Below are positions 11,307-59,553 of a stretch of DNA of 64,000 nt, one piece after another. The notes beneath the pieces are model-generated. The model ran no database searches. It was not told the DNA's origin and worked only from the letters and a program-made list of their open reading frames with translations. This DNA comes from a virus (lineage: Duplodnaviria; Caudoviricetes): IMG/VR virus record IMGVR_UViG_3300006752_000009; one strand, given 5' to 3'. Position 1 is the stretch's first letter, and each line of letters starts with the position of its first letter. A program made the position numbers and the translations under genes.

Positions 11307-14300
11307 GTTCGTAATGTAAATACACTGTCGCATCTGAAACGAACTGAATACCATTGGTATTATTATTAGTAAATACAAGAGTTAAGTAAGGGTCTGATGC
11401 ATTTCCGTTTGTCAAAGTAGTATTTATATTAACATTTAATACATGGTCGTTAAAGTGTTGAAAGTTAATAGCATCTGCATCCACGACAGTCAAAGAAACG
11501 CTAAGGCTTAGGTTAGTCCCTAAGTTATTTACCCCATCAATATGTGTTATCCACGAATAAAGTAGGTTTCCATTCCAAACATCTACACCAGAATAGTTCT
11601 CTATAATCGTAGTGTAGCTTTCATCAGTTGAGTGAATATCCAGATCAATCTCTTGTGATGGTATTCCAAACTGAGTCTGTGGGTTTGTAGTTTGAGCCTT
11701 AAAGAACAATGGGAGAAAAGAGATCTCCTTACCAGTCTTTCCTTGTATTTCAATTTTCCCATACCCAAGAGTTTGAATGTTGAGAGAGGTTAGTAAACCG
11801 TCATTATTCAAACCTACAAACCTGTTGTATGTTTCTGGTGAAGAAATGATGGGTGCTGACTTAGAGGCGATTACTATTTCACCTCGACTTTGAGTTCCTC
11901 CGGGATTTGAGAGGATGTTTCCTGCATCTTCTTGCCCATAACCCGACACACCCGATTGTCTGACTTGACCTGTCTTTATGATAACATTCCCACCCGATAT
12001 GGTGTTAGCATTTGGGGATGAGTTAAACTCAAGTTTAGCATCTCCACCTTCTAAGAATAAGTCTGTTCCACCAACAGTTCCAGCTCCTGCCATATTTCCT
12101 GTGGAGAACCTTGTTTCTTTAGGTTGTACTAAGAGTCGTGCAAAAGCTGGGTCAGACACACCAGCAGGGTCAGTAGCGATTCCTGTTCGCAACATCACAG
12201 ATCCTACATCTCCACCTGTCGTGTTTCCTGTAGAGAGCATTAAAGCACCTGTGTTGGTGTTTCCTGTGGAATCTCCTGTGCTTACTAGGATCGGACCTGT
12301 ACCATAACTACCACTTGCAGAGCCACCTGTGGTCATCATTACAAGACCCGAATCACCAGTTGTAGATGATCCACTAGAGATCGCCACCGTACCCGATGAG
12401 CCATCTGTGGACACACCACTTACGACTTGAACAGAACCCGATGTTCCTGTTGAAGTCGTACCTGTTAAGATCTGTACTAAACCAGAGTCGCTACCTGCAT
12501 CTAATGCTGAACCTGTATTGATTAATACATACCCCGAATTTTCATCGTAAGTATTTCCTGTTCTAAGGGTTATATTACCACTCCCTGCTTCGTCAGCGAC
12601 AGTCGCATCGGTTGGGTTTCCCGAACCATCTTCAGCTCCACCTGTGGCTATAACAATCGCACCACTGTCTTTAGTGTTTTTCGGGGTGTACCCTGTCTTG
12701 ATAGAAATCGCACCACTATTTTCTTCTGTTGCATTTCCTGTTTTTAGATCAAGATTTCCACTTACTCCTCCAGTAGCATTACCCGACTTGAGGTAAGCAT
12801 TACCACTAGCTCCACCTGTTGTATTTCCACTATTGAAACCAATCTCACCAGAACCCGAACTAGCATCTGAGTTTCCTGTACTTACATAGATAGGTCCACT
12901 AGCACCTGTAGCCCCTGTACTCTGTCCTGTGTAGATCATTACTTCTCCACTAGATCCAGTGCTTGTATCTGATGTGTAGACCCCAATGTTCCCACTGTTT
13001 CCATTTGTTGGTGCATTTGTGTAAATAGAAATCCCACCTGTCCCTGTAGTCCCTGTACCACTTTTAATCAAAAGACTCCCACTACCTCCACCTGCGTTAT
13101 TCCCTGTTGCTATGGTAATAATGCCACTATTGCCACCATCTGTAGTACCTGTTTGTAAAAATACCTCACCACTTGGTCCAGAGCTTCCACTCACACCTGT
13201 ATTATTTCCTGTATTTAAATAAAGATCGCCCGATTGAGTGTTACTTGTTCCTGTTTTAAGCGTAGCATCACCACTTGCTCCTCCAGTTGCATTACCCGAA
13301 TATAAACTAGCACCACCTGTAGCACCACTTGTCGTAGTGCCAGAGTAGAAATCAAGAACACCCGATGTAGTGTGTCCTTGACCACTATAGATAGAAATCG
13401 CACCACTCGAATAAGTAGCGTTATTGGCTGTGCCTGTGTAGAGGTTAATCACTCCACTATTCCCATTGATAGTTGAGATGCCTGTTCTTATCTCAAGAGC
13501 ACCTGTATTTGCTCCTGCGTTTGAGGAGAATAAATACACAGAACCACTATCTAATGTTGCTGAAGAACCAGACTTTATAAAGACTGACCCACTACTACCT
13601 GTTGACGCTTGCCCCGACTCTAACTTTACAGTTCCACTTGAACCACTACCTTGTGGTAGACCACTCTTTACGGTTACAGCACCACTATTTCCGTCATTAG
13701 GTTCACCACTTTGGATCGTGATAGCACCACTAGTTCCATCCTCTGTAGTTCCCGACCCTATTGTGATAGCACCACTGTTTCCTGTATCTGTATTACCTGT
13801 GAGTATGTTCATCAGTCCAGAGTTGGCACTAGATGTATTCCCAGTGATTAGCTCAATTTTACCCGACTCGTTAGTTCCCCCTTGCCCTGTCTTAACATCG
13901 ACATCCCCTGTGCTTCCTGCGTTTGCAGTTGAGCTTGTGCTACCACTCTCTATGGTTATATCCCCACTTGCTGAACTCGTGTGGTTGTGAGGATTGCCAG
14001 ATTTGATTGTGATTGGACCAGACTCTGTGTTTTGAGCAGAGACATCGCCTGTTTGTATGCTAATCAATCCTGTTGTTGTTGTGCTTGTGCTTGTTGTAAG
14101 GATGTTCTCTTTATCAACTCCCCCTGTTGAAAGGTAAATTCCCCCAAAGGTACTTAAGGGAGGTTCGGTTAAGTTTGATCCCCCAAAGATATAGACATTA
14201 CCTGCATAAAGTCCATCACCAGAGTTGATGGTAACATCTCCACCCATTCTTCCATGACCACTATCTCCTGCTTCAACAGTCACAGATCCCGAATAGGCTC

Positions 14301-33575: not shown

Positions 33576-33845
33576 TTATCCCTCGTCTTCAATGTGGTCG
33601 AGGGATGATTTAGAGACATAGACAGGAGTGTGCTCTCCCCAATATGCACCGAGTACATTAAACTCGTACCACTCCCAAGCCATTTCATAGGCTCTTTCCT
33701 CATCAGTTTCTTCATCTTGAAACTCATTTTTCCAATGAGAAATCATCCTGTCGAGGTCATACACAAGAGCGTAAGGCTTTGAAGCTACACCTATAATCAT
33801 GCTGTCAAATACTGATCTCGGTTCAAGGTAAACAAGATTTTCCAT
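33576..33845 (-). CDS. Hypothetical phage protein
   Basis: Start reassigned to MENLVY (GGAG SD); AWEWYEFNVLGAYWGEHTPVYV. Confidence 0.6.
   Translation of the reverse strand: MENLVYLEPRSVFDSMIIGVASKPYALVYDLDRMISHWKNEFQDEETDEERAYEMAWEWYEFNVLGAYWGEHTPVYVSKSSLDHIEDEG
33588..33608 (+). repeat. 21-bp direct repeat, right copy
   Basis: Identical to 32979-32999. Confidence 0.9.
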
Positions 33846-33939
33846 TTTTTTGCTCCTTTTGAGGTTAGTTTTGTATAATACCAATGTGAGTGTTATTGAA
33901 CGCTCCGATGATCTTTGAAAACTTGTTGAACTTAACTTG

Positions 33940-34008
33940 AACACCTATGCTCTTTGGTAAGAGCGTCAGATGACTGACGATGACAGGTTCGACTCCTGTT
34001 AGGTGTTT
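33940..34008 (+). ncRNA. tRNA-like element with shrunken (4-6 nt) anticodon loop
   Basis: Acceptor aacacct/aggtgtt, D gctc-N8-gagc, gtcag-atga-ctgac, T acagg-ttcgact-cctgt. Confidence 0.7.
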
Positions 34009-34088
34009 TAGGTTATCCTCCCCTTTAGTTTTTTCACACTTTAAGTTTGAGAGTACCAAGGTTTAGGCAATGGGGGGATAACCTTTAA

Positions 34089-34160
34089 GCATTAGTAGCT
34101 CAGTGGAAGAGCAACACTTTCCTAAAGTGTAGGTCGTAGGTTCGATCCCTACCTAGTGTA
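34089..34160 (+). tRNA. trnR: tRNA-Arg(CCT)
   Basis: Cloverleaf; anticodon arm acact-ttCCTaa-agtgt; T-loop ttcgatc. Confidence 0.88.
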
Positions 34161-34239
34161 CTAGACCCTCCTTTTCATCTTTTTACAAAAAATATCTAGG
34201 GGTAGATAGTGGGTAGATGTGGAAGGGTCTTTTTTTATC

Positions 34240-34293
34240 ATGTCAGACCTCAATGGTGAGGTTGAGAAATAGGGTTCGATCCCCTCTGATGTG
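34240..34293 (+). ncRNA. Anticodon-armless tRNA-like RNA 1
   Basis: Acceptor atgtcag/ctgatgt, D cctc-aatggt-gagg, 9-nt linker, T aggg-ttcgatc-ccct. Confidence 0.65.
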
Positions 34294-34530
34294 TTAGACT
34301 CCCCCTACTTTCTTTTATTTTCTTGTCTTGGATAAAAGAGGAGTAGGGTAGGGGTGGGTCTATTAGGCGATTTACCGAGACAAGAAGAAAAAATGCTGTG
34401 CCTAAGCCAGTATACCTACGAAAGCCCGTATGCGTGGGAGACTGTAGACAAGAGAAAGCGGTGGGTCAACCTCTCAGACCTAAGCCCTCACTACACTTGA
34501 GAGATAACATTAACCTTTAGGAGTTTGATT

Positions 34531-34608
34531 ATGAGTAATCCAAACTATCCATCTAAGACTGGAAACCCATCGGGTGGAGGTCGAGGAAACACACCTAAAT
34601 CTAAATAA
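34531..34608 (+). CDS. 25-aa Gly/Pro/Asn-rich micropeptide MSNPNYPSKTGNPSGGGRGNTPKSK
   Basis: AGGAG SD at optimal spacing; lies between the two armless tRNA-like elements. Confidence 0.6.
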   Translation: MSNPNYPSKTGNPSGGGRGNTPKSK

Positions 34609-34711
34609 GGATTTAGATGAAATCCACACTCTGTAAAAGTGATCTTCTTCCCTTTTACTCATAAACACTATCTGTTGTTCCTAGATAGGTGGTAAAAAAG
34701 GAACACCTAAC

Positions 34712-34762
34712 ATATCTGACTCCTCTTGGTGGAGCTTGTCGGGTTCGACTCCCACAGATATG
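34712..34762 (+). ncRNA. Anticodon-armless tRNA-like RNA 2
   Basis: Acceptor atatctg/cagatat, D ctcc-tcttggt-ggag, short linker, T ggg-ttcgact-ccc. Confidence 0.65.
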
Positions 34763-34825
34763 CTAGACCCTCTTTTTATTGTTCATTTTGAACGGTGTGT
34801 GATAATCTTCGAGGGTCTAAACTTT

Positions 34826-34897
34826 GCACTTGTAGCTCAGTGGAAGAGCAGGGGCCTTCTAAGCCCAAGGTCGTAGGTTCGACCCCTACCAGGTGCG
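34826..34897 (+). tRNA. trnR: tRNA-Arg(TCT)
   Basis: Cloverleaf; gggc-ctTCTaa-gccc; acceptor gcacttg/caggtgc. Confidence 0.88.
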
Positions 34898-34899
34898 TT

Positions 34900-34998
34900 C
34901 GCTTGATTGGCATAAGACCTCTTATTGGAGATTTCTCTAATAGGGTTAGTTCTCCTTTAAGAGATCAAACTTTGGTTCGATTCCAAATCGAGCGACCA
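34900..34998 (+). ncRNA. tRNA-like RNA with encoded CCA, weak D-arm and greatly extended anticodon arm
   Basis: Acceptor cgcttga/tcgagcg + A + CCA; T tttgg-ttcgatt-ccaaa; ~45-nt hairpin in place of the anticodon arm. Confidence 0.6.
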
Positions 34999-35319
34999 CA
35001 CTCTGTTCCTTTATAGGAACTCTTCAAACAGACGCATAGAGAGTAGTGGAAAAACAGATAAGCGTTTGCTCTGGCTTATTTGGGGTCTGTTTACGCTTCT
35101 TATTGCCACCGTTAAAGAAGATGCAAGCTCTTGGAGAACTATGGCTTTCGCACCATAACCTACCTAAGAGGGAAGCAGACCAAAAATGTCAAATGGTGAA
35201 GCGAGGGCATTACGCTAATGCGAATAAGGCATCGAGGGAGTCTGCTCATTCCTCTCGTTCATATCTCCTTTGCTCTTGGTAAAAGGGATATGAGCCAATT
35301 TTGTTGTGAGGTAGAAATC

Positions 35320-35589
35320 ATGGGTTCTGATAAAGTCGAAAGTTTAAGGGTGTTAGTCAATCAAAAAATGAAGCTCGAAAAGTTCCTTAGTATTTGCGAG
35401 GGGCTTCACAGTGTGAGCTTCATCATGTTGATCTTCTATGTGGTAACATATAAACACAGTGATACCCTTTATGTTATCGCTTGGTCTTTTTTAGCGGTAG
35501 TAGGTTGGCTTATTACCTACCTCTTAGAGAAGAAGATTTTACTCGTAAAGAAATCCATCGCTGATGAACTCTTTGAAAGAGAAGAGTAA
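35320..35589 (+). CDS. Small two-TM membrane protein
   Basis: Start reassigned to MGSDKV; two hydrophobic segments. Confidence 0.55.
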   Translation: MGSDKVESLRVLVNQKMKLEKFLSICEGLHSVSFIMLIFYVVTYKHSDTLYVIAWSFLAVVGWLITYLLEKKILLVKKSIADELFEREE

Positions 35590-35592
35590 TAT

Positions 35593-35664
35593 GCTCACTT
35601 AGCTCAGTGGTAGAGCAATCGGCTGTTAACCGATCGGTCCAAGGTTCAAATCCTTGAGTGAGCG
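35593..35664 (+). tRNA. trnN: tRNA-Asn(GTT)
   Basis: atcgg-ctGTTaa-ccgat; canonical D and T arms. Confidence 0.92.
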
Positions 35665-35773
35665 ATACCTCCTTTGGTTGGTGGTTAAGAGCAACCATGA
35701 CCCCTCATGTAAATGGGTTGTGCAAAGATAGCTTCTAGGTTGTTGGTCGCTTCTTTGTTTAGGGGTCGCTTAT

Positions 35774-35845
35774 GTACCTGTAGCTCAACGAACAGAGCCT
35801 CATCGTTGTAGGTGAGAGGTCTAGGTGTAAGTCCTAGTGGGTGCA
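35774..35845 (+). pseudogene. Degenerate tRNA-like element (6/8-nt anticodon loop, non-canonical T-loop tgtaagt)
   Basis: Weak acceptor gtacctg/tgggtgc; D gctc/gagc; ctcat/gtgag; ctagg/cctag. Confidence 0.55.
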
Positions 35846-35849
35846 AATT

Positions 35850-36240
35850 GGAGTTAAGTATATGTCCGCTGTCGGAGGTTCGTTAACATTTCCCTTCCGA
35901 TGGAAGTTGCCCTCTCTACTACGCTAGTCGAAATCCACTACAGAGGAAGCGTAAATGACAGACCACTTAACTTGAGTAGTGATAGTCGCTTACTCGATTG
36001 AAACATATCGGGTAGGTAGAACCTCTACCCTTACAGGATTACTCCTGTGAGCTATACTAATACAGAAAATGTTAACGCTGTGGCTTTACGCTGATTGTGG
36101 TATGTACTTGGAGGACTTAAGCCCATCCTACCCTAAGACTCGTTCAACTCTTATTCGTTTAAGGGGAATGGGCTTATAGTAGAATGACTAGCTTGGTCTA
36201 GGATTTCCCTAGACCATACTACTAAGGGTAGGGAAACTTA
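35850..36240 (+). ncRNA. Candidate large structured non-coding RNA
   Basis: No credible ORF; many stems incl. gggtagg-GAAA-cttaccc, tggtctagg/cctagacca, taagcccat/atgggctta. Confidence 0.45.
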
Positions 36241-36248
36241 CCCACTTT

Positions 36249-36331
36249 GGACAGGTGGTCGAGTGGTTAAAGACATCAGACTGTAAATCTGACCTCTTAG
36301 GAGTACGCAGGTTCAAATCCTGCCCTGTCCA
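36249..36331 (+). tRNA. trnY: tRNA-Tyr(GTA)
   Basis: tcaga-ctGTAaa-tctga; long variable arm. Confidence 0.92.
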
Positions 36332-36347
36332 TTAAAGGATAAAACAC

Positions 36348-36584
36348 ATGAGTACAAAAGCGACAATCGCACATGGAGATGAGTTCCATGTGTACCAAGA
36401 GATGTTTGAGGGGGATGCCGTCTATCTCCAAATAGATAAGCATGGTGGGTTCGTTCAGATCATGGGCGATAGGATTACTGTAAGCCTACCTCCTAGTCTT
36501 TTAGACAAGATCGCAAAGGGTTGGCTAGATAATCGTGGAAAGTTCGATACAGAGCCAAATAAAGAGCTTAATCTTGAGGGTTAA
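36348..36584 (+). CDS. Hypothetical protein
   Basis: 78 aa, AAGGA SD. Confidence 0.55.
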   Translation: MSTKATIAHGDEFHVYQEMFEGDAVYLQIDKHGGFVQIMGDRITVSLPPSLLDKIAKGWLDNRGKFDTEPNKELNLEG

Positions 36585-38331: not shown

Positions 38332-39414
38332 ATGATTGGAGATGCAGTGCAGGAGATCAAGAAATACTCTTTTGAACAAGAGATACATGGAACGACCGTT
38401 CGTGTCGAACTACCCGACTACAAGATTAGAGAAATCAGCGAGTCCGAGGGGAAGAACTTTGATCAGTTCTTAAAAGACACGAACGCTAAAATTGTCGGAA
38501 CTATCTATCCCGATACTTTCCCAAAAGGAGCAGAACCTTTTACGACTCATCTTTTGGATGTGCGTACAAAAAATACCGATTTCAGTTATTATCACGCTAG
38601 CTATGATAAGAACGCTAAAAGAGACTATGCGTATCACATGAAACTCATTCCATCGGGTGAGTTTGAAGCCGTAAGGTCACCGAATCAATCTAACTGCGAA
38701 CGAGACAATCCTCATAAGTATCTTGATACTATGCCTAAAGAGGGTTCAATCAAGGTTAAGATCACTCGCCCCTTTTGGATTGGCACTCACATGGTAAGTG
38801 GGAATCTCATCTCACATTATGTTCGGAAGTCTGCAACGAGAAAACCATCAAGAGATTGGAGCTTTGAAAGTACCGCTAGGTATGAGCATCTTTGTAATGA
38901 ACTCTCCGAAGCAATCGGTTTAGAACCTTGTTATTTCAATAACGAAGTAGACATCACTAAGAATGGCTTCAGATTGCCCACAGAAGCTGAGTGGTATTAT
39001 GTCGCCAAAGCTAATGAAGATTTCGTCTATTCGGGTTCAGACAATATAAATTCAGTTGCCCATTGGAGAGGTGGTCATGGTCTTAAATGGTACAACTATA
39101 ACCAAGTAGGGAAACTAAAGCCTAACGCTTGGGGTATGTATGACATGAGTGGCAACGGAAATGAACTTGTCCATAACTCATTTGGTACGCTCAAAGGTAG
39201 ATACTCTAGCAACAAAGAATGCCCTATGGGTGAGCTAGATGGAGAGGGTTATCTTGTAGACCCTATTTCAGAGATACGCACTAACTATTTGGTGGCTAAA
39301 GGAGGTTCACATGAACCTTACGAAAATGACTGGTCGGCAACAACTTGTCGTATCGACTTTAGAAACACTTATGCCCATCACCCTATGTTTAGACTTGTAA
39401 GGAACGCACTATGA
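38332..39414 (+). CDS. Formylglycine-generating-enzyme (SUMF1/CLec-fold) domain protein
   Basis: GFRLPTEAEWYY, KPNAWGMYDMSGN, KGGS, terminal FRLVR. Confidence 0.8.
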   Translation: MIGDAVQEIKKYSFEQEIHGTTVRVELPDYKIREISESEGKNFDQFLKDTNAKIVGTIYPDTFPKGAEPFTTHLLDVRTKNTDFSYYHASYDKNAKRDYAYHMKLIPSGEFEAVRSPNQSNCERDNPHKYLDTMPKEGSIKVKITRPFWIGTHMVSGNLISHYVRKSATRKPSRDWSFESTARYEHLCNELSEAIGLEPCYFNNEVDITKNGFRLPTEAEWYYVAKANEDFVYSGSDNINSVAHWRGGHGLKWYNYNQVGKLKPNAWGMYDMSGNGNELVHNSFGTLKGRYSSNKECPMGELDGEGYLVDPISEIRTNYLVAKGGSHEPYENDWSATTCRIDFRNTYAHHPMFRLVRNAL

Positions 39415-41130: not shown

Positions 41131-41457
41131 CTAGCAAGATCGAAAGGCTGAATGGGCCTCTCTTCTGTTTGTTGTGATCTCCTCAACACGACAATCATCT
41201 GCTCTAAGAGAGCATTTTACGACTGCAAATACTTCTCCTACGGACACGAGGAAAACGCTGTTGCTCCCACTCATCTTAGCATCGAGATCTACGATCTCCT
41301 TCGCTTCGTAGGCCATATCCATTTCTTCATAGATTTCGTCAAGAAGCTGACCCTCGGCAAAGGAAGGCATCTGACTAGCCGTTTTTCTCGTTGCACTTTC
41401 AAGTCTTGCAATTCTCATCTCAAGGTTACGAATGATTTCACTAGCAGATCTTCTCAT
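41131..41457 (-). CDS. Leader-bearing hypothetical protein C
   Basis: MRRSASEIIRNLEMRIARLE; body paralogous to protein D (LLDEIYEEMD). Confidence 0.75.
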   Translation of the reverse strand: MRRSASEIIRNLEMRIARLESATRKTASQMPSFAEGQLLDEIYEEMDMAYEAKEIVDLDAKMSGSNSVFLVSVGEVFAVVKCSLRADDCRVEEITTNRREAHSAFRSC

Positions 41458-41517
41458 AATGGTTCTCCATTGGTTAAGGTTAAAGAGATCACTTATTGGT
41501 GAGTGATAAAGAAACTA
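41398..41517 (-). promoter_or_regulatory. Leader cassette C
   Basis: TAGTTTCTTTAT + conserved UTR; 52 nt (41447-41498) identical to 42303-42354. Confidence 0.85.
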
Positions 41518-41541
41518 CAAATCATATAAGAGAGGCATGAG

Positions 41542-41612
41542 GGCAGTTAGCTCAATCGGTAGAGCAGTAGACTTTAATCTATTGGTTCTGAGTTCGAGTT
41601 CCAGACGACCCA
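41542..41612 (+). pseudogene. tRNA-Lys-derived pseudogene (6-nt anticodon loop, mismatched acceptor and T stems)
   Basis: Flanks resemble those of tRNA-Lys 38243; 5' end gggcagttagc matches tRNA-Met 42539. Confidence 0.7.
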
Positions 41613-41646
41613 CTCTGTAAATGCTCTTATATGATTGGAGACAATA

Positions 41647-41962: not shown

Positions 41963-42313
41963 TTATCTTGCAGTTCTGAATGTGTTAATGGCACTTCTTT
42001 GGGAGTTAGCGATTTCAAGCACATCACAACTGAAGCTATTAGGCTCGTCCATTTCGCATTTGACAACTGCGAAGATACCTGGGAGTAAGTTGCCAACTTC
42101 CACAAGGAAAATACTGCTTCCGGTAACAGACTTAGAGTCGATAACTCTAATGTCAGATTCATCAAATCCAAGATCCATCTCTTCATAAATCTCATCAAGG
42201 AGCAGGGTTTCGGCTTCAAAGGGCATCGAACTTGCCTTCTTCATGGTTGATCTTTCAAGCCGAGCGATCCTACGCTCAAGGTTACGAATGATTTCACTTG
42301 CTGATCTTCTCAT
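41963..42313 (-). CDS. Leader-bearing hypothetical protein D
   Basis: MRRSASEIIRNLERRIARLE; paralog of C. Confidence 0.75.
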   Translation of the reverse strand: MRRSASEIIRNLERRIARLERSTMKKASSMPFEAETLLLDEIYEEMDLGFDESDIRVIDSKSVTGSSIFLVEVGNLLPGIFAVVKCEMDEPNSFSCDVLEIANSQRSAINTFRTAR

Positions 42314-42373
42314 AATGGTTCTCCATTGGTTAAGGTTAAAGAGATCACTTATTGATAGGGTATAAATAAACTA
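42254..42373 (-). promoter_or_regulatory. Leader cassette D
   Basis: TAGTTTATTTAT + conserved UTR + leader codons. Confidence 0.85.
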
Positions 42374-42380
42374 CAAATCA

Positions 42381-42408
42381 TCTGAGTTCGAGTTCCAGAC
42401 GACCCACT
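42381..42408 (+). pseudogene. tRNA 3'-half fragment
   Basis: 28 nt identical to 41587-41614. Confidence 0.75.
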
Positions 42409-58701: not shown

Positions 58702-59553
58702 ATCTTCGGACCAAACGATGTACTTGTCTCGCATGAACTCGATATAGGCTTTTGCTCTAGGGTTTCTAGCTAGTCTAATCGCTTCCTCAAAGTCACCTCC
58801 GAAAAGTGCTTCAAACTTGTCAGAAGCACCGTCATCATACTCTGGATCAATCCTAGACAGCCCATCAATATGATCAAGAATAAAGTCCTCGAACCTCATC
58901 TTAGCTATTCTTTTAGCACTTGCTCTGCGAGTTAGTTCACTGCCTGTAGTTTGACGATCAAAATCAGACCTTGTTCGTCTTTCATCAAGAAGTATTTTTT
59001 CTAGTTGTTGGTCGCCTTCATCATCTTGATAGATAGTCGCCCATTTATTATTTATCTCACAATGCACAAGAGCATAGAGGCTGTTTTTATCTTCACGATC
59101 TTCTTTTACGGACAACACTTTGAGACTACTAAATCCAAAGTCATCGTAAAGTCTGTTTTCAAGCCACTCTGCCACTTCAAAATTTGTTCTTGCTTGTCTA
59201 TTACTACTCTGTTTACTCGTAGAAGGGAAAGGGGTCGGGTTATATTTAGATGCCATATCGACCATCTCTCTATCCTCATGTGTTAGTCGTTGTCTGTACC
59301 AATCGCTACCCATAGAGATTAGTGCATAGTTAGTTCTGTCTAAAGAACGCTCTAACTTGGACAAGTGTCTTGGGAGAGCTTCAAAGTTATCCCCACAACG
59401 CTTGTATATTTCCTCAGCGAGTTGAGGGTTTTCTTTTATGGCCTCGACCATTTGGTTCATGTGTGTACGAACGATGTGAGCTTCCACTCTCGCAGAGGAA
59501 ACCCCTTGAGATAAAATAGACCAAGATGCTTGGCTTGAAGATTTCTTTTTCAT
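58693..59553 (-). CDS. Hypothetical multi-segment protein, putative virion protein
   Basis: 286 aa; RQAR and RRASAKRIAK internal motifs; class I variant upstream. Confidence 0.55.
   Translation of the reverse strand: MKKKSSSQASWSILSQGVSSARVEAHIVRTHMNQMVEAIKENPQLAEEIYKRCGDNFEALPRHLSKLERSLDRTNYALISMGSDWYRQRLTHEDREMVDMASKYNPTPFPSTSKQSSNRQARTNFEVAEWLENRLYDDFGFSSLKVLSVKEDREDKNSLYALVHCEINNKWATIYQDDEGDQQLEKILLDERRTRSDFDRQTTGSELTRRASAKRIAKMRFEDFILDHIDGLSRIDPEYDDGASDKFEALFGGDFEEAIRLARNPRAKAYIEFMRDKYIVWSEDLF

Follow-up and report, generated by a model that had tools for sequence, protein, structure and literature searches.

Two tRNA-like elements lacking the anticodon arm in the tRNA array of a marine jumbo phage

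Structure and detection of C1 and C2

The virus record IMGVR_UViG_3300006752_000009 of IMG/VR (Duplodnaviria; Caudoviricetes), analysed here as one stretch of 64,000 nucleotides (the window), contains two tRNA-like elements from which the whole anticodon arm is missing. They were designated C1 (34239-34293) and C2 (34711-34762), lie inside a tRNA array on the same (plus) strand as the tRNA genes, and were identified by direct reading, by a custom scan and by their occurrence in related phages. A preliminary description had placed two armless tRNA-like genes at these sites, and direct reading bears this out to within 1 nt. Judged by the compensating mutations that keep their shape in related phages, C1 and C2 are probably working tRNA look-alikes unable to decode, not dead tRNA genes. 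Our preferred interpretation, which we put forward tentatively, is that they are real paralogous genes under selection for non-decoding mini-tRNAs of 52-55 nt that act in trans as mimics of the tRNA body.

C1 has an acceptor stem of 8 bp (34239-34246 with 34286-34293), U.G and G.U pairs included. A single connector base, A, follows the 5' strand of the acceptor and leads to the D stem (34248-34251/34258-34261), the D arm as a whole being CCTC-AATGGT-GAGG (34248-34261) with the loop AATGGT. The place of the anticodon arm is taken by a linker of 9 nt (34262-34270). The T arm (34271-34274, loop TTCGATC, 34282-34285) has three G-C pairs and one A-U pair, and on the 3' side the next, unpaired base is a T (34294), followed by TAGAC. 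C2 is built in the same way. Its acceptor stem (34711-34718 with 34755-34762) is Watson-Crick paired at 8 of 8 positions, the connector is again A, and the D stem (34720-34723/34731-34734) encloses the loop TCTTGGT in the D arm CTCC-TCTTGGT-GGAG (34720-34734). The linker is reduced to 5 nt (34735-34739). The T arm (34740-34754) consists of CGGG, the loop TTCGACT and CCCA, with three G-C pairs and a C.A juxtaposition; the next, unpaired base is a C (34763), followed by TAGACC. The 4-bp D arm with TGGT in its loop, the T arm with TTCGA and the linker of 5-9 nt that had been noticed in the preliminary description were thus all found in both elements. Its acceptor stem of 7 bp needs correction: the seven pairs exist in both elements, although they are the inner part of an 8-bp stem whose outer pair, C-G here, has covaried to U-A in relatives.

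The fifth position of the T stem would be U.C if the elements were read as a conventional 7+5 helix; alternatively, it is used by the eighth acceptor pair. Since the T stem has just 3-4 standard pairs, the coaxial stack is better described as 8+4 than as 7+5, and a stacked helix of 8+4 layers has the same length as the 7+5 layers of a tRNA. Of the features of a canonical tRNA, C1 and C2 possess the 7/7 paired acceptor, a D arm with GG in the loop and a TTCRANN T loop, while an anticodon arm with a 7-nt loop is not present: the 5-9 unpaired bases between D and T arms leave no room for one. A tRNA from which positions 27-43 are removed retains position 26 and the variable loop, which comes close to the linker lengths of C1 and C2 (9 and 5 nt). 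The bases of the elbow (GG of the D loop and the T loop TTCGAYY) are intact in both elements, and both match the T-arm motif GGTTCRANYCC known from t-elements (GGTTCGATCCC in C1, GGTTCGACTCC in C2). In structural terms, C1 and C2 can be modelled as the upper half of a tRNA, an 8-bp acceptor on a short T stem, together with a D arm whose GG would be able to dock on the T loop and form the elbow. A further shared feature that had been pointed out earlier is the sequence (c/t)ta-gac on the 3' side. TAGAC indeed follows C1, C2 and the neighbouring tRNA-Arg(CCT), and forms the 5' arm of a long spacer hairpin.

Neither element was called by ARAGORN, and there was no Rfam match even at E values up to 10. 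We scanned both strands of the window for a TTCRANN loop with at least 3 inner T-stem pairs, 7/7 acceptor pairs and a 4-bp D hairpin with GG in the loop within 45-62 nt. There were two matches, exactly C1 and C2. In 200 dinucleotide-preserving shuffles the mean was 0.02 matches; four shuffles contained one match and none contained two. The folding energy of C1 and C2 alone is not distinctive (z -1.6 to -1.9), which is usual for RNAs of tRNA size. C2 folded together with the hairpin that follows it gave z -3.96.

About 1.2 Mb of unrelated viral loci were scanned for the armless fold, and one match turned out to be simply the anticodon arm of a genuine tRNA-Thr (L067/L070). In an unrelated high-GC viral contig of 171 kb, nested tRNA-like pieces are tangled at the end of an array of 19 tRNAs (L095:12240-12500), and within this tangle 12379-12429 is a candidate of 51 nt in which acceptor, D hairpin and T arm are combined with a linker of 4 nt. 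With these as the matches, the scan does not support generality of the armless fold. A broad pattern (TGGTGRRG, gap, GGGTTCGANNCCC) was found at no fewer than 109 IMG/VR loci, almost all of them 3' parts of ordinary tRNAs or chance matches; 7/7 acceptor pairing occurred in four, about 7 being expected by chance, and these loci were not counted as members of the C1/C2 family. A more specific pattern recovered known relatives alone in IMG/VR, plus three metagenome contigs.

Conservation and covariation

A search with the ATP-dependent ligase of the window gave 15 IMG/VR loci, one of which, L001, is a complete contig of 375,691 bp (G001) with 96% protein identity. C2 has orthologs in this phage (L001:12305-12357) and in L003 (6877-6929). 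The three metagenome contigs, L127-L129, carry C1, identical to the window in L127 and L128 and with two substitutions in L129. Contigs from four SRA runs, belonging to four further marine studies, cover both C1 and C2.

The alignment comprised five distinct C1/C2 sequences. All 8 acceptor pairs were standard in all five, i.e. 100% of the cells were paired. The window has C-G as its outermost pair where L001 and L003 have U-A; A-U at pair 7 of C1 corresponds to U-A in C2, and at two further positions wobble pairs (G.U or U.G) in some sequences are replaced by A-U or U-A in others. The D stems of the two paralogs differ (CCTC/GAGG in C1, CTCC/GGAG in C2), yet each pairs completely. The paired fraction was 93.8%, and neither this fraction nor the covariation score was reached in 500 shuffles; when the partners were slid by 1-3 columns, pairing fell to 34-65%. 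Comparison of the paralogs shows three compensatory double changes, and none that breaks a pair, in acceptor and D stems; among orthologs every change in the acceptor stem preserves pairing. The earlier observation that C1 and C2 differ in sequence while their pairing is retained thus extends, by compensatory and wobble changes, from the paralogs to the orthologs. Unconstrained drift, which would have spoken for decay, was not seen in this small sample.

The comparison of the window with L001 is instructive in this respect. C2 is 92.5% identical, whereas the segment upstream of it is 56% identical and the hairpin downstream (hairpin C) 49%; even the true tRNAs are less conserved than C2, with 73% for tRNA-Arg(CCT), 83% for tRNA-Arg(TCT) and 86% for tRNA-Asn. 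The two C2 sequences differ at four positions, every one of them at the top of the acceptor stem and without loss of pairing, while the bases of loops and linker are unchanged. In hairpin C the stem was kept while the loop accumulated many substitutions and indels, which argues for constraint and against a recently swapped block. The maintained pairing and the conservation of C2 beyond that of the adjoining true tRNAs, in the midst of diverged flanks, agree with the view in the preliminary description that C1 and C2 are not products of random decay. Likewise, C1 is identical in L127 and L128 although the upstream flank there is unrelated to that of the window.

Organisation of the array and distribution among relatives

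The tRNA array extends over 33.9-42.6 kb of the plus strand and contains 10 genes according to ARAGORN and 10 tRNA matches according to Rfam. It starts with a tRNA-Lys-like unit (33940-34008), a hairpin and the canonical tRNA-Arg(CCT) (34089-34161; ARAGORN, Rfam), the upstream neighbour of C1. The interval between the two is occupied by spacer hairpin A (34162-34231; stem TAGACCCTCC/GGAAGGGTCT, then a T run), which accompanies C1 in the window. Spacer hairpin B (34295-34362) lies 3' of C1; in relatives without C1 its ortholog, established by alignment and from L128 and L129, is found directly 3' of tRNA-Arg(CCT). It is followed by a structured leader of about 170 nt (34363-34530) with two hairpins that covary among relatives (e.g. 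CTCTCA/TGAGAG versus CTCTTA/TAAGAG) and by a conserved open reading frame (ORF) of 25 codons with an AGGAG ribosome-binding site (34531-34608), located between C1 and C2. The alignment of this ORF showed mostly synonymous substitutions in relatives (76.9% identity to L001). A GTTCC/GGAAC hairpin (34677-34704) lies just 5' of C2; the same motif is found 5' of C1 in L127-L129 and 5' of tRNA-Arg(TCT) in relatives without C2. Spacer hairpin C (34764-34819), 3' of C2, has the stem TAGACCCTC/GAGGGTCTA that was kept in L001. The canonical tRNA-Arg(TCT) (34825-34898; ARAGORN, Rfam) is the downstream neighbour and is followed by a tRNA-like RNA of 100 nt ending in CCA. All these units are on the plus strand.

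L001-L003 possess C2 and hairpin C and lack C1. L004-L010 have neither element; here hairpin B directly follows tRNA-Arg(CCT), tRNA-Arg(TCT) directly follows the GTTCC hairpin, and hairpin C is missing along with C2. In L127-L129 a GTTCC hairpin precedes C1, and the upstream region is otherwise different. Variation was seen even within one SRA sample, where a minor variant lacked 34168-34319 (hairpin A and C1) and the major form lacked 33938-34108 (the first unit). By these patterns of presence and absence, C1 and C2 behave like small accessory cassettes, each moving with one hairpin.

The loop of hairpin A contains, about 30 nt 5' of C1, a weak sigma-70-like match (34182-34210; TTTACA, 17 nt, GATAGT), and the hairpin, with a T run at its end, resembles an intrinsic terminator. 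C1 might accordingly be the first gene of a separate transcription unit; sigma-70-like sites as such are not above chance (6 found, 5.2 expected). The possibility that TAGACC is a genome-wide boundary motif was rejected: the hexamer is enriched (58 versus 32 expected) yet mostly located within genes, and TAGACC...GGTCTA hairpins occur in the array and at 59517 only.

The window belongs to a marine jumbo phage. Pfam and PHROGs scans detected a tail-sheath-like domain, an ATP-dependent ligase and an HNH domain among its proteins, and the stretch was recovered in marine and seawater metagenome runs. The sole cultured relatives seen were Chryseobacterium jumbo phages, which are distant (34% over half of one protein). 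A blastn search of 33800-36400 against GenBank phages matched generic tRNA segments alone and revealed no close cultured relative, and a second protein anchor (38332-39414) yielded no additional contigs. All nine tRNA genes of G001 belong to this one array. On the minus strand of G001, at 258906-260561 (L153, L154), there is a single open frame of 948 amino acids with two PolyA_pol head domains (CCA-adding/poly(A) polymerase family), which may represent a phage-encoded tandem tRNA nucleotidyltransferase. Pfam and PHROGs scans of the genes near the array detected neither a tRNA-related enzyme nor an aminoacyl-transferase gene.

Other unusual tRNA-like units

The first unit of the array (33940-34008) folds into a full tRNA-Lys-like cloverleaf whose anticodon arm has a 6-bp stem and a 4-nt loop, ATGA, and would be non-decoding. 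Its ortholog in L127 (2304-2372) has the loop TTTTTTC and was called tRNA-Lys(ttt) by ARAGORN. The counterpart in L001 (11594-11657; 42% identity) consists of an acceptor stem, a short hairpin with the loop ATTT and a T arm; the architecture common to it and the 33940 unit was derived from separate folds, the 5' half being too diverged for alignment. Neither L004-L010 nor the major form in run X8 has the unit. While its body is conserved, the anticodon loop varies freely (ATGA, ATTT, TTTTTTC). A tRNA-Lys copy at 41541-41613 has an anticodon loop of 6 nt. By these comparisons, tRNA bodies with an unmaintained anticodon recur in the array.

The copy at 41541-41613 is the end of the first part of a duplication: 41275-41614 and 42131-42408 share a block of about 256 nt with 75% identity that includes paralogous minus-strand ORFs. 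The end of the second part (42381-42408) is 100% identical to the last 28 nt of the 41541-41613 gene, fused to the duplicated upstream region, and is clearly a deletion remnant of a tRNA gene.

The element downstream of tRNA-Arg(TCT) (34899-34998) starts 1-2 nt 3' of that gene. This tRNA-like RNA of about 100 nt combines an acceptor stem of 7 bp with a perfect T arm, its ACCA is encoded, and a long hairpin replaces D and anticodon arms. Among the tRNA genes of the array it alone encodes CCA. It was kept in all relatives, including those without C1 and C2 (83.5% identity to L001; folding z -4.1). ARAGORN called it tRNA-Pyl(cta), which is not supported since the loop differs in relatives. A block of 180 nt (35666-35845) is 97-98% identical to L001 in surroundings of 50-85% identity and looks like a recently exchanged small cassette; it includes a weak tRNA (35774-35845; Rfam 30 bits) with the T loop TGTAAGT. 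Finally, in the tRNA-Tyr(GTA) of several relatives (L004:7724-7798; L007:7054-7128; L008 and L010:13073-13147) the D arm has been replaced by an inverted copy of the gene's own variable arm. The predicted 11-bp helix extends the anticodon stem of this 75-nt tRNA, which was not called by ARAGORN and has been kept, with differences, in two sub-lineages.

Proposed function and alternative explanations

Neither RNase P nor the CCA-adding enzyme reads the anticodon; both recognise the stacked acceptor/T helix and the elbow (reviewed in PMC4919913 and PMC4810234). Given this specificity, an RNA of the shape of C1 or C2 within a tRNA precursor should be excised and tailed. As the preliminary description implied, the parts read by RNase P, by the 3' processing enzymes and by the CCA-adding enzyme are exactly those that C1 and C2 have kept. 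We propose that both elements would be transcribed from the plus strand together with the tRNA array and that their RNA would fold like a tRNA body. Host RNase P would make the 5' cut and the tRNA 3'-end machinery the 3' cut, beside the spacer hairpin. CCA would then be added; none is encoded in C1 and C2, and the complete relative has the gene for a nucleotidyltransferase of the CCA-adding type. The released non-decoding RNA would serve as a trans-acting mimic of the tRNA body and occupy a factor that reads the elbow formed by acceptor, T and D arms, the top candidate being a defence nuclease of the host that targets tRNAs, or an enzyme that handles them. Cutting of the transcript on each side of the small-ORF cassette would be a built-in side effect. 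The spacer hairpins 3' of C1 and C2, as after the true tRNA-Arg(CCT), support this interpretation. A function in trans is favoured because sequence as well as shape is conserved, because the genes are accessory and because the neighbouring true tRNAs make additional cleavage signals redundant.

A narrower version of the trans mimic, which we regard as doubtful, specifies the target. C1 and C2 would be amputated tRNAs, matured and CCA-tailed, that offer nothing to cut and titrate a host defence tRNase or another sensor. Candidates are enzymes of the OLD, PARIS, Schlafen or PrrC type, provided that they dock on elbow and acceptor before attacking the anticodon arm. If true, this would be an RNA-based anti-defence strategy distinct from nuclease-resistant decoding tRNAs, and the tRNA-Lys-like genes with loops of 4 nt and 6 nt would be milder forms of it.

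Several points weigh against selection for a trans-acting mimic. Close relatives dispense with C1, C2 or both. The covariation statistics are soft since they derive from 5 distinct sequences that are related to one another. In three runs C1 has changed from A to C at 34271 and from T to A at 34285, resulting in C.A as in C2, which is no standard pair. Short blocks of about 98% identity indicate that recent exchange happens in the array. The remnant at 42381-42408 and the 6-nt-loop tRNA-Lys copy (a pseudo-tRNA) prove that decay is real there and make it a live rival. The elements are confined to one phage clade: when our model R1 was run on the window, on 17 loci and on the whole 375-kb relative, C1 and C2 were its only matches. 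To our knowledge, no RNA decoy of this architecture directed against a tRNase has been described. The earlier proposal of a distinct RNA class must be qualified accordingly: C1 and C2 are non-random and constrained, but the class is narrow, consisting of C1/C2 copies in one clade of marine jumbo phages, and its members are accessory.

Possible, though rather less so than a trans mimic, is a role in cis as processing punctuation. Here the fold would recruit RNase P and the 3' tRNA processing enzymes, and the mini-tRNA would be a by-product. Punctuation would free an mRNA for the small ORF, composed of hairpin B, the leader, the 25-codon ORF and the GTTCC hairpin, with its ends protected by hairpins. 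The arrangement is in keeping with this: the cassette is flanked directly by C1 upstream and C2 downstream, the same two positions are held by true tRNAs in relatives without C1 and C2, and the T arms fit the GGTTCRANYCC motif used for finding t-elements (PMC1920247). The cut sites would, however, be redundant, one true tRNA lying 78 nt ahead of C1 and another 63 nt beyond C2, and in the relatives the tRNAs alone suffice. Moreover, a cleavage signal needs shape only, whereas the loop and linker bases of C2 are identical across lineages whose true tRNAs differ by 14-27%. It also argues against punctuation that no such elements were found between protein-coding genes elsewhere in the window.

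That C1 and C2 are non-functional remnants we consider unlikely. A tRNA gene might have lost its anticodon hairpin by slippage, and the remnant might have been duplicated and carried along by cassette shuffling; the apparent conservation would then reflect recent common ancestry or recent exchange. The decay products mentioned above, the narrow distribution, the recently exchanged blocks of 97-98% identity and the presence or absence of C1, C2 and the 33940 unit among close relatives and within one sample would all be expected from this. They have to be set against the three double compensatory changes between the paralogs in stems free of pair-breaking changes, the solely pair-preserving changes in the acceptor stem of the orthologs, the intact tertiary-contact bases, and the retention of C2 between two flanks that diverged, as did the loop of the adjoining hairpin. 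Nor is there a recognisable parent. C1 and C2 score higher against each other than either does against any tRNA of the window or of L001, which makes them paralogs, and no parent stands out among the co-resident tRNAs. Exact searches of IMG/VR with the D arms of C1 and C2 found no full-length tRNA containing them, only chance matches in coding DNA, and the homologous loci of relatives have either the element or nothing, never an intact tRNA in its place. Intact tRNAs from which C1 and C2 could have arisen by a recent deletion were thus not found in relatives or in IMG/VR. Another kind of remnant, that of an attP or integration site, was rejected because C1 and C2 retain the 5' acceptor strand and the D arm.

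Very improbable, lastly, is a chargeable mini-tRNA, aminoacylated without an anticodon and used as a non-ribosomal donor, or the tRNA domain of a tmRNA-like molecule. Some synthetases do charge acceptor/T minihelices, and C1 and the C2 of L001 have a G.U near the top of the acceptor; this pair is A-U in the C2 of the window and in the C1 of L129, and it is pair 4 of the covariation-supported 8-bp stem, not the G3.U70 read by AlaRS, so that an alanine identity via G3.U70 was rejected. A shared identity set is lacking since the unpaired next base is U in C1 and C in C2, ARAGORN found no tmRNA or tag, and the scans near the array found no aminoacyl-transferase gene.

Significance and comparison with known systems

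Clusters of tRNA genes in phages are now viewed mainly as countermeasures to host nucleases that destroy tRNAs, several of which attack the anticodon arm. Defence nucleases of this kind make a mimic consisting of the tRNA body alone an attractive, if hypothetical, idea. A conserved tRNA body without an anticodon arm cannot aid translation and must therefore serve a reader of tRNA shape only, which might be a processing enzyme, the CCA-adding enzyme, a modification enzyme or a defence protein. If the RNAs of C1 and C2 are made and stable, they would provide a simple, testable handle on those readers of tRNA shape that are relevant in infection. As standard tRNA finders miss C1 and C2, phage tRNA arrays may hold more non-decoding members than annotated.

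Full-text literature searches found no paper describing phage genes for tRNA-like RNAs without an anticodon arm. The t-elements of plant mitochondria are substrates of RNase P and RNase Z, and non-encoded C/A residues are added to them (Forner et al. 2007, PMC1920247; Hanic-Joyce et al. 1990, cited there). Like C1 and C2, they have a non-canonical, non-decoding tRNA-like fold with an acceptor stem and a GGTTCRANYCC T arm, and they are located beside mRNAs, as C1 and C2 bracket the small-ORF cassette. In contrast to C1 and C2, t-elements are organellar, usually degenerate cloverleaves of about 70 nt, and defined by mapped transcript ends. In C1 and C2 the whole anticodon arm is cleanly gone, D arm and elbow are intact and the sequence is strongly conserved, and they are sited in a phage tRNA array whose genuine tRNAs already supply sites for cleavage.

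mascRNA is cut out by tRNA enzymes, has CCA added and retains a reduced anticodon-like stem. mascRNA (58 nt) and the MEN-beta tRNA-like small RNA are released from longer transcripts and adopt a compact, non-decoding L-shape (bioRxiv 10.64898/2026.01.19.700226). They resemble C1 and C2 as tRNA-like RNAs of about 55-60 nt that do not decode, but they originate from eukaryotic nuclear long non-coding RNAs and have no sequence relation to the phage elements. In tmRNA the tRNA-like domain, consisting of acceptor stem, T arm and a reduced D region, also lacks the anticodon arm (PMC3929946). However, its halves are joined via a large pseudoknotted mRNA-like domain, it has the alanine identity G3.U70/A73 and it needs SmpB. 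The halves of C1 and C2 are joined by a linker of 5-9 nt; the elements lack a conserved G3.U70 and a tag ORF, and neither ARAGORN nor Rfam matched them to tmRNA.

The OLD nuclease of P2 is one of the defence nucleases that remove or cut the anticodon arm, and a resistant phage tRNA-Thr has a shortened anticodon stem (PMC12445682). A Schlafen-type nuclease is another, and further anti-phage tRNases have been listed (PMC13056530). The phage tRNAs that escape such nucleases resemble C1 and C2 in belonging to phage tRNA clusters and in having changes centred on the anticodon arm; unlike C1 and C2 they still decode and rescue translation, whereas RNAs without an anticodon could only mimic or compete. 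A further lead is provided by the TMERs of the gammaherpesvirus MHV68, in which a non-aminoacylated viral tRNA (vtRNA) is reportedly followed directly by stem-loops and separated from them by tRNase Z. The order of a tRNA-like RNA and a stem-loop is that of C1 or C2 and its spacer hairpin, while the TMERs, from an animal virus, are said to be transcribed by Pol III, their hairpins to be pre-miRNAs and their vtRNAs to keep the anticodon stem. Set beside these systems, C1 and C2 appear as tRNA-like, non-decoding, putative substrates of processing enzymes that stand outside tRNA, tmRNA and every Rfam family.

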